This document shows positions 2,473-28,135 of a stretch of DNA of 28,147 nt, in pieces (positions within the stretch are counted from its first letter, which is position 1; each line of letters opens with the position of its first letter). Source of the DNA: a virus (Duplodnaviria > Caudoviricetes); IMG/VR virus record IMGVR_UViG_3300043415_000014, positions 1-28,147 of that record, one strand, 5' to 3'. The notes under the pieces are model-generated. The model saw nothing but the letters and a program-made list of their open reading frames with translations. It did not search any database and was not told the origin of the DNA. The translations under genes and the position numbers were made by a program.

Positions 2473-2667
2473 ATGAAAACACAAAAACAACAAATCCAGG
2501 ATCATTTAAGCAAAGGCAAATCAATTACTCCAATACAAGCATTAAATAAATTTGGGTGCTTTAGGTTAGCTGCAAGGATAGCTGATTTAAGAAACGAAGG
2601 GGTAAATATTGCTACTAAGAATGTAACTAAGGCGGGTAAAACTTACGCAAGTTATAGCTTATGTTAA
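2473..2667 (+). CDS. Winged helix-turn-helix protein (HTH_39-like)
   Basis: IQDHLSKGKSITPIQALNKFGCFRLAARIADLRNEG. Confidence 0.8.
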   Translation: MKTQKQQIQDHLSKGKSITPIQALNKFGCFRLAARIADLRNEGVNIATKNVTKAGKTYASYSLC

Positions 2668-3533
2668 CTCATGCTTCATTATTTAGTGGAATAGGTGGCT
2701 TTGACTTAGCAGCCGAGTGGGCAGGTTGGGAAAATATTTTCCATTGCGAATGGAACCCTTTCGGACAAAAAGTTTTAGCCCACCATTTTCCTAACTCAAA
2801 ACCTTATCATGACATTACTAAAACAAATTTCTCTATTCACAACGGAAAAGTTGACGTCCTTACAGGAGGATTCCCTTGTCAACCCTACTCAATGGCAGGA
2901 AAGCGACTCGGAAAAGAAGATGAACGCCATTTGTGGCCCGAAATGCTTAGAACAATTAGAGAAGTCCAACCACGTTGGGTCGTGGGCGAAAACGTTCTCG
3001 GGATTGTTAGTTGGTCGGGGGGATTGGTTTTCGAAGAGGTGCAATCTAATTTGGAAGCTGAAGGTTACGAAGTACAAACGTTTATACTTCCAGCTGCAAG
3101 CGTCAACGCTCCGCACCAAAGACAAAGAACCTGGATTGTTGCTTACTCCGTCAACAAAGGAAGACGTAGTGAATTTGGAAACATTTCAAAAGAGAATGAA
3201 GAAGTATGCAAACGGAACGAAAATGCCGAATCTAGCGACTCAAGTAATAGGAATGTTACCGACTCCAACAACGAGGGACGCGAACGGGATAGAGAACAGT
3301 CCATCGCAAAAGGGGAAATCACGTTTAGCAGCGGATTTGGGGGATGGGACAACTTCCCAACTCAACCCTCACTTTGTCGAAGAGATGATGGGATTTCCAA
3401 ACGGTTGGACGGCATTACCTTTCCTAAATGGCGAAACGAGTCAATCAAAGCCTACGGAAACGCAATAGTTCCTCAAGTAGCTTATGAAATATTTAAGGCT
3501 ATAAATAAGTTTGAGTTATTGGTTAATAAATAG
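2661..3533 (+). CDS. DNA (cytosine-5) methyltransferase, main (alpha) polypeptide
   Basis: Motif I FSGIGG, IV GGFPCQ, VI ENV, VIII HQRQR, X GNAIVP; motif IX is missing from this frame. Confidence 0.95.
   Translation: MLTHASLFSGIGGFDLAAEWAGWENIFHCEWNPFGQKVLAHHFPNSKPYHDITKTNFSIHNGKVDVLTGGFPCQPYSMAGKRLGKEDERHLWPEMLRTIREVQPRWVVGENVLGIVSWSGGLVFEEVQSNLEAEGYEVQTFILPAASVNAPHQRQRTWIVAYSVNKGRRSEFGNISKENEEVCKRNENAESSDSSNRNVTDSNNEGRERDREQSIAKGEITFSSGFGGWDNFPTQPSLCRRDDGISKRLDGITFPKWRNESIKAYGNAIVPQVAYEIFKAINKFELLVNK
2809..3468 (+). CDS. Nested alternative-frame methyltransferase beta subunit (motif IX plus probable TRD)
   Basis: 219-codon open frame wholly inside the MTase; QLNPHFVEEMMGFPNGWT resembles motif IX; LLLTP/MLPTP repeats; true start uncertain. 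Confidence 0.75.
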   Translation: MTLLKQISLFTTEKLTSLQEDSLVNPTQWQESDSEKKMNAICGPKCLEQLEKSNHVGSWAKTFSGLLVGRGDWFSKRCNLIWKLKVTKYKRLYFQLQASTLRTKDKEPGLLLTPSTKEDVVNLETFQKRMKKYANGTKMPNLATQVIGMLPTPTTRDANGIENSPSQKGKSRLAADLGDGTTSQLNPHFVEEMMGFPNGWTALPFLNGETSQSKPTETQ

Positions 3534-3541
3534 TATATTTG
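3510..3541 (+). promoter_or_regulatory. Promoter of replication module
   Basis: TTTG (3510-3513), 20-nt spacer, TATATTTG (3534-3541). Confidence 0.85.
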
Positions 3542-3543
3542 TC

Positions 3544-3635
3544 TTGATATATGCGACATATCAATAGAAAATTTTTAGGGAGGAGGATTGACAGGTAGTC
3601 GCATTACCTGCTGGTCCAAATCCCTTTTTTATTTT
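3544..3635 (+). ncRNA. Structured cis-regulatory 5' leader with kissing-loop pseudoknot
   Basis: Hairpins TTGATAT-[ATGCGAC]-ATATCAA and CAGGTA-[GTCGCAT]-TACCTG have exactly complementary loops; second stem extends to AGGGA/TCCCT plus T-run. Confidence 0.7.
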
Positions 3636-4424
3636 ATGAAAAAAGATGCGTTTTATTTTCCTCATTTTGCCAATGCAAGGCACGATAGGAAACTCAAAAG
3701 AGTACAAAAAGAATTAGGCCTTGAAGGTTATGCTATTTATTTTCAGTTATTGGAAATTCTTAGGGAACAATTAGATTATAAATACCCTGTAAGTGATGTT
3801 GACTTATTAGCTGACGAAATGGGAACAAGCGAACCAAAAGTTAAAGCAGTAATTGGTAATTATGATTTATTTACTTTAGATGAGGAAAATAACTTCTTTA
3901 GTATCAAACAGTTATATTATTTACAACCTTATATAGAAAAGACTCAACGAGCAAGAATAGCAGCTAAAAAAAGGTGGGATAATGTTAACGACGATGCAAA
4001 TGCAATGCAAATGCATAGCAAATGCAATGCCGATGCAATGCAAGGAAAGGAAAGTAAAGTAAAAGAAAGTAAATTAAAGGAAAGTAAACTAAAAGAAAAT
4101 AAAGAAGTTATTTTTCCGTTTGTAAGTGATGAATTTAAAAAATATTGGGAACATTGGTTGGAATATAAGAAAGAACAATTTAATTTTACTTATAAGTCTG
4201 CTATAACTTTACAGGCTACTTTAAACCAATTATCTAAACTATCCGACGGGAAAGAAAATATTGCAATAGAAATAATAAAGCAATCAATTTTTAACGGTTG
4301 GAAAGGATTTTTTCAATTAAAAAATGAATCAAATGGAATTAACAACAACAACCCAAAACTCGCTCCAAAAGTTACCATCGAGCAGTTACACGAAGCCTTT
4401 GCTAAACGCAATCGTGAGTGGTAG
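3636..4424 (+). CDS. Replication initiator (Lin1244/DUF4373-like N-terminal domain, lambda O-like layout)
   Basis: FYFPHFANARHDRKL...GLEGYAIYFQLLEIL N-terminus, low-complexity repeat linker, C-terminal QSIFNGWKGFF; ATG 3636 preferred over TTG 3588. Confidence 0.8.
   Translation: MKKDAFYFPHFANARHDRKLKRVQKELGLEGYAIYFQLLEILREQLDYKYPVSDVDLLADEMGTSEPKVKAVIGNYDLFTLDEENNFFSIKQLYYLQPYIEKTQRARIAAKKRWDNVNDDANAMQMHSKCNADAMQGKESKVKESKLKESKLKENKEVIFPFVSDEFKKYWEHWLEYKKEQFNFTYKSAITLQATLNQLSKLSDGKENIAIEIIKQSIFNGWKGFFQLKNESNGINNNNPKLAPKVTIEQLHEAFAKRNREW
3996..4103. repeat. Putative replication origin: four 11-bp iterons plus A-rich 15-bp repeats
   Basis: GCAAATGCAAT/GCAAATGCATA/GCAAATGCAAT/GCCGATGCAAT (3996-4039), then GAAAGTAAA-led 15-mers (4050-4103). 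Confidence 0.75.
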
Positions 4425-4938
4425 CACGGGAGCGGTACATAATGAAATGTGTCGATACAAAGAGAAAGGAGAGCCGTTACACATGAAAGTTATTGAATTA
4501 ATACCCGTTAGCGAAAGAATACCCGCATTAAATAAAATGTACGGGAATGAGAAAATAGCTGCGTTATTAAGTATTCAAATAACAAGGACCTTAAACAACT
4601 TTAATTTAAGGGTTGGAATGAATCCTCAACAAATAATGGAATTGGCTTATGCTATAATTGACGACGCGGAGCAGGATCAATTAGCTATACAGGATATTCT
4701 TTTATTCTTGGACGGTATGACAAAATTTAAATATGGTAAAGTTTACGACCGTATGGATATGCCTACATTCTTTGAAATGTTAGAAAAATACAGGGAAGAA
4801 AGGCACCAGGCTTACATGAACGGTAAAGAAGAGGCACACGCTCAATTTAAAGCGATGGGCGATAGTAACCGAACAAGCCAAGACGTAGACAAAGAAAATA
4901 ATCGTAACGCAATGATTAACTATCTAAAAACAAAATAA
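4324..4938 (+). CDS. Replication-associated protein, possible helicase loader (DUF6633-like)
   Basis: Overlaps initiator end; KYGKVYDRMD motif typical of genes that follow Bacteroidota phage initiators. Confidence 0.6.
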   Translation: MNQMELTTTTQNSLQKLPSSSYTKPLLNAIVSGSTGAVHNEMCRYKEKGEPLHMKVIELIPVSERIPALNKMYGNEKIAALLSIQITRTLNNFNLRVGMNPQQIMELAYAIIDDAEQDQLAIQDILLFLDGMTKFKYGKVYDRMDMPTFFEMLEKYREERHQAYMNGKEEAHAQFKAMGDSNRTSQDVDKENNRNAMINYLKTK

Positions 4939-4943
4939 AATAT

Positions 4944-5013
4944 TACCCTCGCCTCAATTATTAATTATTAAAAACAGGGGTGTTTTCGATATAATCGGCG
5001 GGGGTATTTTTTT
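4944..5013 (+). terminator. Multi-stem structured element/terminator
   Basis: TACCCTCGCC/GGCGGGGGTA 10-bp outer stem, inner AAAACA-GGGG-TGTTTT hairpin, T7 tail. Confidence 0.6.
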
Positions 5014-26093: not shown

Positions 26094-26101
26094 TATCTTT
26101 G
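26094..26101 (+). promoter_or_regulatory. -7 promoter element before HNH gene
   Basis: Intergenic TATCTTTG. Confidence 0.5.
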
Positions 26102-26118
26102 GTAAAATCAAAAAATAT

Positions 26119-26622
26119 ATGACAAAGACATTTTTTTTACCTAAGTATTATACTATTGAAATTGAGGATCAAACAGGCGAAGTAAAAGTTTATTCTAATT
26201 CTAAACACGCTAAAGGACGAGAATTAACTAAAAAAATAAATTCTTACGGGTATTTAGATATTAAAATGAATAATAAAACTTATACTATTCATTCATTGGT
26301 TGCTAAATATTTTTTAGGTGAGAGACCAAAAGATTTATGTATTAATCATATAGACGGTAATAAATTTAATAATGCGCCTTCAAACTTAGAGTATGTAACA
26401 ATAACTGAAAATATAAAACATTCAATAAAAACAGGTTTACATATTTGCAATACTCCTGAAAAAATGGGTAGATATATAGATGGTAGGTGTAAGGATAAAG
26501 TAAAATATAAAAGAGAATGGTATCTTAAAAATAAACAACGCATCCTTGAAAAGATGAAAAAAAACTACAATGACAACAAACAACAACCAACTAAAAACAA
26601 AACGCAAAAGACTTTACTTTGA
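26119..26622 (+). CDS. HNH homing endonuclease (HNH_3 type)
   Basis: IHSLVAKYF...INHIDGNKFNNAPSNLEYVT..EN..H. Confidence 0.9.
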   Translation: MTKTFFLPKYYTIEIEDQTGEVKVYSNSKHAKGRELTKKINSYGYLDIKMNNKTYTIHSLVAKYFLGERPKDLCINHIDGNKFNNAPSNLEYVTITENIKHSIKTGLHICNTPEKMGRYIDGRCKDKVKYKREWYLKNKQRILEKMKKNYNDNKQQPTKNKTQKTLL

Positions 26623-27987: not shown

Positions 27988-28038
27988 CGTTGTTTTTCAT
28001 AGTTGGTTTCTCCTGGTGTAAAAAGCCAGGAGTTTTTT
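27988..28038 (+). ncRNA. Putative small RNA 1 (about 50 nt), antisense-to-start-codon type
   Basis: Promoter, then TTGTTTTTCATAGTTGGTTT, then terminator; 14-nt perfect complement to 2466-2479. Confidence 0.62.
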
Positions 28039-28135
28039 GTTTTATCAATATATTAAGTTAGATTTGTACTGATTCAAGCAATTCATAGACAAATGGTTTA
28101 ACCCCTTACGTTTCTACGTCGAGGGGTTTTTTTAT
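28010..28135. repeat. Terminal direct repeat, right copy
   Basis: Identical to 1..126. Confidence 0.97.

Follow-up and report, generated by a model that had tools for sequence, protein, structure and literature searches.

Plasmid replication initiators offer familiar cases of control by contacts between RNA loops. In IncI/IncB plasmids a pseudoknot activates rep translation and Inc RNA contacts the repZ leader, and the rep genes of pT181 and pIP501 have attenuators controlled by antisense RNA, which IncI/IncB control likewise needs. In guanidine-IV riboswitches, two hairpins are joined by a loop-loop pseudoknot and the 3′ hairpin is a Rho-independent terminator, as described in parts of PMC9788692 and PMC11611296; the same passages describe the kissing loop as hindering completion of the terminator, and growth of P2 as shortening the linker and blocking the kiss. 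Among phages, P4 CI RNA and Gifsy-1 IsrK are presented in a section of PMC4825925 as short leader-derived RNAs that act on their own transcript. Here we analyzed a 28,147-nt stretch of viral DNA (the window), in which an earlier note, made from the letters, had proposed a kissing-loop RNA leader ahead of a replication initiator gene.

The leader and its genomic setting

The window carries the terminase, capsid, ERF, NinG, and C5 methylase genes of a small tailed phage (Pfam; 10 window ORFs scanned), and all of its recognizable genes in the ORF list lie on the + strand. Bases 1-126 are repeated at 28010-28135, which gives a 126-bp direct repeat at both ends carrying two terminator-like hairpins. 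From this repeat and the completeness rating of 95%, the window is probably close to a whole genome; the repeat points to a genome of about 28.0 kb that is nearly complete and circularly permuted, despite the linear class of the record. No integrase or repressor was found among the window ORFs, either by eye or with Pfam on 10 ORFs and PHROG on 7 ORFs. A small early-region gene at 807-1145 encodes a DnaA C-terminal helix-turn-helix domain (PF08299, E 5.5e-22), and its product may bind DNA and regulate the origin of the host or of the phage. The C5 methylase gene (2661-3533) encloses a nested same-strand frame of 219 codons at 2809-3468.

As shown in Table 1, the leader stands between its own promoter and the first gene of a replication operon. 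Judged by its domain matches, the product of that gene is a replication initiator (PF14297 E 1.6e-12; phrog_2562 E 3.1e-24; phrog_678 E 1.7e-4). The repeats within the gene are likely origin iterons and an A-rich tract, a role that we assume from the precedent of lambdoid initiators. The second operon gene had no Pfam match and matched only phrog_35728, to which PHROG assigns no function; it possibly encodes a helicase loader, and a look-alike stands behind unrelated initiators in two related loci (L224 and L252; ORFs, by eye). Across L224 1597-2803, L252 1414-2584, and window 3636-4938, unrelated initiator N-termini are joined to a similar C-terminal tail and followed by a similar next gene (by eye), which suggests that the origin-binding part has been exchanged as a module. 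Behind the second replication gene, a terminator-like stem at 4941-5012 has a loop of about 43 nt with a small inner hairpin; this stem is absent from the terminator scan output.

Table 1. Coordinates of the leader, its promoter, and the genes behind it in the window
Feature	Position	Strand	Detail	Basis
-33-type upstream promoter box	3510-3513	+	TTTG, 20 nt before the -7 box	sequence
Bacteroidota sigma-A -7 box	3534-3541	+	TATATTTG	box scan
Hairpin 1 (P1)	3546-3562	+	5 bp from predicted start G3546	folding, covariation
Loop 1	3551-3557	+	ATGCGAC, 5′ kissing partner	
Linker	3563-3576	+	A/U-rich, 14 nt	
Hairpin 2 (P2)	3577-3625	+	terminator-like	fold, covariation
P2 base stem	3577-3581/3621-3625	+	5 bp	
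P2 middle stem	3585-3590/3612-3617	+	three G-U pairs	
P2 apical stem	3592-3597/3605-3610	+	apical hairpin 3592-3610	
Loop 2	3598-3604	+	GTCGCAT, exact complement of loop 1	
T-rich tail	3626-3635	+	predicted termination zone, abuts ATG at 3636	sequence
Replication initiator gene	3636-4424	+	262 aa, Lin1244_N, lambda-O-like C-terminal part	PF14297, phrog_2562, phrog_678
Two direct-repeat sets within the initiator gene	3996-4103	+	11-nt and 10-15-nt spacing	
Second operon gene	4324-4938	+	204 aa, overlaps the initiator gene	ORF

A full consensus promoter had been claimed for the leader. A promoter is indeed present, but it matched sigma-70 at only 9/12 and is best read as a Bacteroidota type; from this promoter type we infer a Bacteroidota host. 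The TATATTTG box directly adjoins the stop codon of the upstream methylase gene, and the TTTG before it is presumably the -33 box, taken as such from the Bacteroidota consensus and the spacing. Counted alone, the -7 box is no more frequent genome-wide than chance predicts (43 found against 42 expected); what gives it weight is its position and conservation. The TA and TTTG of the box were invariant in 28 aligned rows of the family described below (family A), of which TTTG belonged to the search pattern and TA did not. Because the Bacteroidota -7 box occupies -12 to -5 in the description given in part of PMC9723704, placing the box there predicts a transcription start at G3546.

The coordinates given in the earlier note for the hairpins, loops, lower stems, tail, and ATG all agree with the sequence, and the two loops are exact 7-nt complements. 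The + strand folded at -27.1 kcal/mol (z -3.2), with 0/200 shuffles as good; the - strand folded almost as well, but lost the G-U pairs of the middle stem. Among 40 dinucleotide shuffles of the 135 nt ahead of the ATG, none equalled the loop-loop score. Both hairpins formed in the fold of 3546-3632 (z -3.1), and once the RNA is complete, its linker is expected from the fold to base-pair with the U tail. From G3546, P1 has 5 bp, as its relatives do, and it would extend to 7 bp (3544-3564) if transcription starts further upstream; its stability alone is low (-1.9 kcal/mol, z -1.0). For a transcript ending at 3612, the predicted fold was a plain duplex of the two loops, not two hairpins. The single-sequence nearest-neighbor fold closed two extra pairs inside loop 2, and an open loop of 7 nt is what the covariation, not this fold, supports. 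The P2 base stem followed by T6-A-T4 gives terminator features that are conserved, although the T tail belonged to both loop-blind search patterns under whose alignments it is conserved. Of the intrinsic terminator previously read here, the stem and the following T tail stand, but P2 is terminator-like only: a simple terminator scan found 0 at P2 because the stem is interrupted.

That hairpin 2 stops 10 nt before the ATG in the window, and 9-12 nt before it in most matches of a de novo descriptor, would suit a gate on translation, in which P2 would not terminate transcription but, once zipped, would block ribosome loading at the ATG, the kiss keeping the base stem open, comparable to the activation of rep translation by the IncI/IncB pseudoknot. 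The short base stem would suit it as well, as would the statement in part of PMC9723704 that Bacteroidota start translation without a Shine-Dalgarno sequence. We consider such a gate quite improbable, because a G-C stem followed at once by six or more T typifies an intrinsic terminator and was present already in loci selected by their initiators. Nor is there a conserved leader peptide: most relatives have neither GGAGGAGG (3579-3586) nor the in-frame TTG (3588), and a peptide from this TTG was rejected, as no match occurred at that place. An anti-Shine-Dalgarno role of the loops was likewise rejected from the relatives and the family-A alignments.

Loop complementarity in related loci

Searches with the initiator protein yielded 91 non-duplicate loci, which together with the window gave 75 distinct 135-nt upstream regions, after exclusion of L001 (identical to the window) and of contigs obtained twice. 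A T tail ended 53 of these 75 regions. In 46 of the 53, a script detected two hairpin loops at the expected places with a Watson-Crick match of 7-10 nt, and most of these matches were equalled by 0-2 of 40 shuffles. Four further regions had a loop match by eye that the script had mis-assigned (L011, L027, L049, and L134), the match in L010 was 5 nt only, the tail in L132 was that of an element one gene further up, and L051 had no loop match. The other 22 regions had no T-tailed leader directly before the initiator; three of them had 8-nt loop matches, all made of A/T only, and in L177 the element stood at the operon head, about 470 nt earlier, with a new loop pair. The leader may be dispensable. 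Between leader and initiator, L177 carries at 2147-2640 what we take, by eye and recall, to be a look-alike of a GIY-YIG/T5orf172-type nuclease gene.

A blastn search with a family-A leader gave no match among cultured phages, whose initiator relatives were distant (25 and 29 records, all <60%), and two Bacteroidota or gut cultured-phage records (L401 and L402) had no such leader before the gene. A Lin1244_N gene was carried by 19 of 301 sampled bacterial genomes, in none of which a leader was seen by eye within 150 nt before the domain; covariance model R1 found no match in 3 bacterial genomes.

Two sets of loci were then gathered with patterns that held no loop letters. The family-A pattern consisted of the promoter end, the linker, and the terminator end; its AAAC/TTATT-like linker, common to family A, had been noticed before it was used for searching. 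The pattern found 101 viral loci, of which 80 were aligned. By hand count, 76/80 carried the element, the rest being chance matches without hairpins (L214, L234, L255, and L273). All 76 elements had a perfect 7-nt loop match, and they fell into seven loop types represented by 52, 8, 6, 4, 3, 2, and 1 loci (hand count). From these, 28 representatives were chosen, omitting window-type loops and chance matches. In every one of the 28 rows the kissing helix had 7/7 pairs (100% paired); its three middle pairs had changed on both sides, and four of the seven positions never varied. Slid controls reached 34-49% paired over the whole structure. Compensatory changes also occurred in 3/4 modelled pairs of P1 and in all three stems of P2, where U-G pairs mark the + strand. 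The closing pairs were invariant, U-A on P1 and A-U on P2, which means that the two loops cannot extend into a longer duplex. A covariance model built from these 28 rows, hence without the window's loop type, scored the window at 60.9 bits (E 6.7e-11, a rough value) and recovered 20 of the 21 family-A pattern loci outside the aligned 80. Many family-A members have a purine-rich 4x4 internal loop in P2 (alignment columns 61-65/85-89), possibly with tandem G-A pairs; by eye it is not a canonical K-turn, and it is absent from the window type.

The family-B pattern, which held the terminator only, gave 80 loci, comprising 78 elements and 2 chance matches (hand count). Loops matched in all 78 elements, with four loop sequences, and the kissing helix was 97.9% paired in 75 distinct rows, which include two chance rows, against 35-46% in slid controls. 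Counts from the alignments are hand counts, and the loci are redundant and related, so that shuffle figures are not probabilities; independent loop changes number on the order of ten to twenty. Diversity of the loop code is low, as one sequence accounts for 52/76 family-A loci and a near-identical one is common in family B. Model R1 recognizes family B and families with longer loops poorly and is unfit to count the whole class. A loosened pattern run on metagenomes returned mostly noise: the first 100 of 120 loci held 3 strong model matches with matching loops and 4 weak ones, none with matching loops. Two family-B leaders with the same loop code (L306 and L378) lie 31 kb apart on one 59-kb contig; their aligned stretches equal L310 and L332, found on two separate contigs of about 29.6 kb, and the 59-kb contig may be two phage genomes joined in assembly.

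Complementarity was thus kept in homologues, with compensatory loop-loop changes, and covariation in two loop-blind sets points to a real cis-acting RNA with strong covariation, whose loop-loop pairing is under selection. The weakness of P1 on its own is what would favor two other readings, namely that an ordinary terminator matches P1 by chance or that the promoter carries a palindromic DNA operator. Both have a practically negligible probability. A chance match is refuted by the covariation, since the match is kept with different letters in 76/76 and 78/78 elements, and it is countered by the result of 0/40 shuffles; an operator palindrome was rejected because the P1 arms change compensatorily, no half-site is fixed, and the U-G pairs favor an RNA of the + strand.

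A separate antisense RNA, encoded on the opposite strand or at another locus and pairing with the loops, has very little probability. The family-A linker does resemble a -7 box on the minus strand, but the box is a perfect TAAGTTTG in only 14/76 loci (hand count), its eighth base is unconstrained, and the window has no perfect copy; an antisense promoter in the linker was rejected on these grounds. A consensus scan found no minus-strand TAnnTTTG below 5107 in the window. Only one further exact loop copy occurs in the window, at 893 within a gene; L146 and L147 have no third copy, and the single one in L149 is at chance level. Hence, the statement that no antisense partner was evident holds both by promoter consensus, with none conserved, and by the search for loop copies.

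In Rfam 15, cmscan gave 0 matches in the window, and over 3450-3700 the best E was 0.73, with all 7 far below the cut-offs; 20 related loci gave 0 at E<=1, and C4 RNA had no Rfam match in the window or the related loci. The Rfam search that the earlier note had advised therefore yielded no family matching the leader. We found no description of the element in the published literature, mainly openly accessible papers. The main texts of PMC5737381, PMC2864571, and PMC10690425 do not describe it, and the word "kissing" is absent from the supplementary files of PMC2864571 that were searched. The text of PMC10690425 reports 8,495 IMG/VR RNA candidates, 1,241 of them with terminators, and this list could hold the leader family as an unnamed entry.

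Genes headed by the leader

The de novo descriptor was run on both strands of the window and 56 long loci (730,006 bases). It returned 35 rows at 31 distinct places, of which 28 stood before initiators and 2 before HNH genes, the remaining 1 being probably chance; none was on the minus strand. The descriptor missed known elements, for example in L146 and L147. In family A, the leader precedes Lin1244_N, DUF1376-like, replisome-organizer-like, and HTH_36-like initiators (the DUF1376 and HTH_36 matches being below Pfam cut-offs), as well as HNH nucleases. All four loci read with loop GTGAGAT continued into a NUMOD4-HNH-type gene; this cassette lies between terminase and portal in L153, L157, and L208 and before NinG in L203. 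In L252, the window's loop type precedes an HNH gene, which is followed by an unrelated initiator. L003 has the base stem of the window with the two loops swapped, and the swap recurs in L254. Because of these arrangements, the loop code cannot be said to track the initiator family. As at least four types of initiator, and NUMOD4-HNH nucleases besides, stand behind the same leader, it is a movable module rather than an initiator-specific site; the earlier reading of a control element specific to this initiator does not survive its occurrence before unrelated initiator families and HNH nucleases.

In both contigs with two elements (L153 and L157), the initiator leader and the HNH leader carry different loops (2/2); the two contigs are not independent, as both HNH leaders are of one lineage. 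Their terminase large subunits differ (L153 6924-8279, 451 aa; L157 5100-6266, 388 aa), their portal genes are similar, and the same leader-HNH cassette stands behind each terminase. The window itself has an HNH nuclease gene at 26094-26622, with a TATCTTTG promoter box 17 nt before its ATG; unlike the HNH cassettes of related contigs, it has no kissing leader.

Two kinds of trans-acting factor can be weighed against this distribution. A phage or host protein might recognize the kissing complex by its shape, or else the conserved linker, and in doing so stabilize either read-through or termination. Rop recognizes the shape of kissing ColE1 RNAs. Invariant loop ends and closing pairs around a free middle would fit such a protein, as would the A-rich linker common to family A and its strict 7-nt loops. 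It is nevertheless improbable, since other families before the same gene have 7-10-nt kisses with quite different stems and linkers, and the leader rides on single-gene HNH cassettes; an initiator-specific protein in particular is unlikely, given that the leader, its loop codes unchanged, has moved among unrelated genes. A small-molecule riboswitch of guanidine-IV type with another ligand deserves hardly any credence. It would share its topology with guanidine-IV and the Gd4v variant, but the middle of the helix varies, families differ in their internal loops, the genes that follow encode initiators and nucleases, and no Rfam family matched. The suggestion of a ligand-binding, riboswitch-like RNA thus fares badly, a ligand being unlikely because the loops vary and swap.

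A candidate gate and its described counterparts

The account that we tentatively favor, at somewhat less than even confidence, is that the leader is a transcription attenuator in which a kiss in cis gives read-through and the accumulated terminated leader RNA shuts the gate in trans. RNA polymerase would start at G3546, and P1 would fold at once. When the apical part of P2 had formed, a kiss between loops 1 and 2 of the nascent RNA would tie P1 to the tip of P2 through the linker; the base stem could then not zip, and transcription would read through into the initiator. Transcripts missing the kiss would complete P2 and end near 3630-3633, leaving a terminated RNA of about 87 nt whose 5′ end is paired and whose two loops are free but beyond each other's reach. 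The weakest step follows: as phage DNA and leader RNA accumulate, the free loops would capture the loops of new transcripts, and a trans kiss, which has no linker tether, would let the terminator complete. Initiator (or nuclease) would thus be made in a burst when the phage enters and then be shut off in dependence on copy number, the loop sequence serving as address. With less confidence still, we suggest that this one RNA would be gate, sensor, and repressor at once, its free loops acting on transcripts with the same 7-nt code.

The kiss in cis is the likely read-through state because of the guanidine-IV precedent and of linker tension. By hand arithmetic, P1, kiss, and P2 add up to about 33 helical steps against the 14-nt linker in the window, and four other families have about 31-35 steps against linkers of 14-20 nt. 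That five families of different build all come close to what a stretched linker can span fits such a gate. Against it stand the base stem of only 5 bp, the weak P1, and the plain duplex predicted for the cut at 3612. For the trans step, no separate partner was found, and the initiator and HNH leaders carry different loops in 2/2 two-element contigs; the terminated leader would be the single partner at hand in every case, its two loops unoccupied, and its kiss in trans would favor termination because it has no tether. P4 CI and IsrK set a precedent for phage leader RNAs of this kind. Against an address code, one code dominates 52/76 loci and only three positions vary, so that many related phages would cross-react. 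The low loop diversity would be expected equally from neutral compensatory drift within a structural constraint and from an address.

Such drift is what a leader with a constant leak would predict. In this alternative, the race between kissing and zipping would set a fixed read-through, or one dependent on polymerase speed or Mg2+, and so dose risky genes; there would be no trans regulator. It accounts for all the covariation equally well as the account with trans shut-off, and also for the one dominant loop sequence, for the tolerated loop swap on one base stem (window versus L003 and L254), and for the use before initiators and nucleases alike. Mg2+ alone, moreover, is described in part of PMC11611296 as promoting the guanidine-IV kiss. 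We nevertheless regard it as rather unlikely, though a serious competitor: a weaker promoter or an ordinary leaky terminator would suffice more simply, and it leaves unexplained that HNH cassettes keep their own loop GTGAGAT (4/4 loci read).

If the proposed gate with trans shut-off is true, Bacteroidota-type phages and selfish HNH cassettes would possess a copy counter and entry timer free of protein, ligand, and antisense RNA; its channels would be addressable, and phages that infect a cell together might cross-talk. Should the trans step hold, the leader would represent a novel form of RNA feedback and a ready, programmable device for controlling genes in Bacteroidota; were the cis gate alone to hold, Rfam would still be missing an RNA family with unusually clean covariation. 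How initiator is limited in small tailed phages without an evident repressor is poorly known, and the leader would be a compact, testable answer.

Compared with plasmid systems, the leader shares with IncI/IncB, pT181, and pIP501 an RNA-RNA loop contact in a replication-initiator leader. It differs in that no antisense promoter, leader peptide, or Shine-Dalgarno sequestration was found, and in its invariant closing pairs, which stop the contact from extending into a duplex; these plasmids, offered as precedents in the earlier note, fit poorly, as they need an antisense RNA for which no conserved promoter was found here. The cATT of pLS20, described in part of PMC13401043, is likewise a ligand-free attenuator of a mobile element with an upstream stem-loop complementary to the terminator. 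That zipper was rejected as a model, because it extends a long nested stem within a 456-nt leader, in contrast to a 7-bp loop-loop kiss in less than 90 nt. Pedo-repair (RF01715), a Bacteroidota motif behind a promoter-like box with variable long-range pairing and a 3′ hairpin, is described in part of PMC2864571 as a nested multistem junction of about 205 nt whose variable pairing is an ordinary stem, not a two-loop kiss; it was rejected for its different fold and the lack of a cmscan match.

Among phage RNAs, P4 CI with seqA/seqC offers a leader RNA that acts in trans to cause premature termination of replication genes, but CI is processed as a segment of its own and has two targets that flank it, according to part of PMC4825925. 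The phage leader has one 7-nt loop pair in about 87 nt, the partner loop lying within the terminator, and its trans action is a prediction; with a single loop pair and no third copy near the element, it departs from the two-target layout of P4 CI and P1 c4. IsrK, as described in the same source, activates, unlike the shut-off proposed here.

The closest counterpart is guanidine-IV (mepA/GGAM-1) with its Gd4v variant, which has the same two-hairpin kiss and 3′ terminator hairpin, the terminator being predicted here, and in which the kiss and the full terminator compete through linker length, as proposed for the phage leader. By this analogy the leader most likely works like the guanidine-IV gate. 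It is not a member of that family, from which the published description sets it apart: no ligand pocket is conserved, 3/7 kissing pairs vary, the loops swap (window versus L003 and L254), and the genes behind it are initiators and HNH nucleases instead of guanidine exporters. Hundreds of phage contigs, together with mobile nuclease cassettes, would thus share the kiss-versus-terminator layout of guanidine-IV, although they conserve no ligand pocket.
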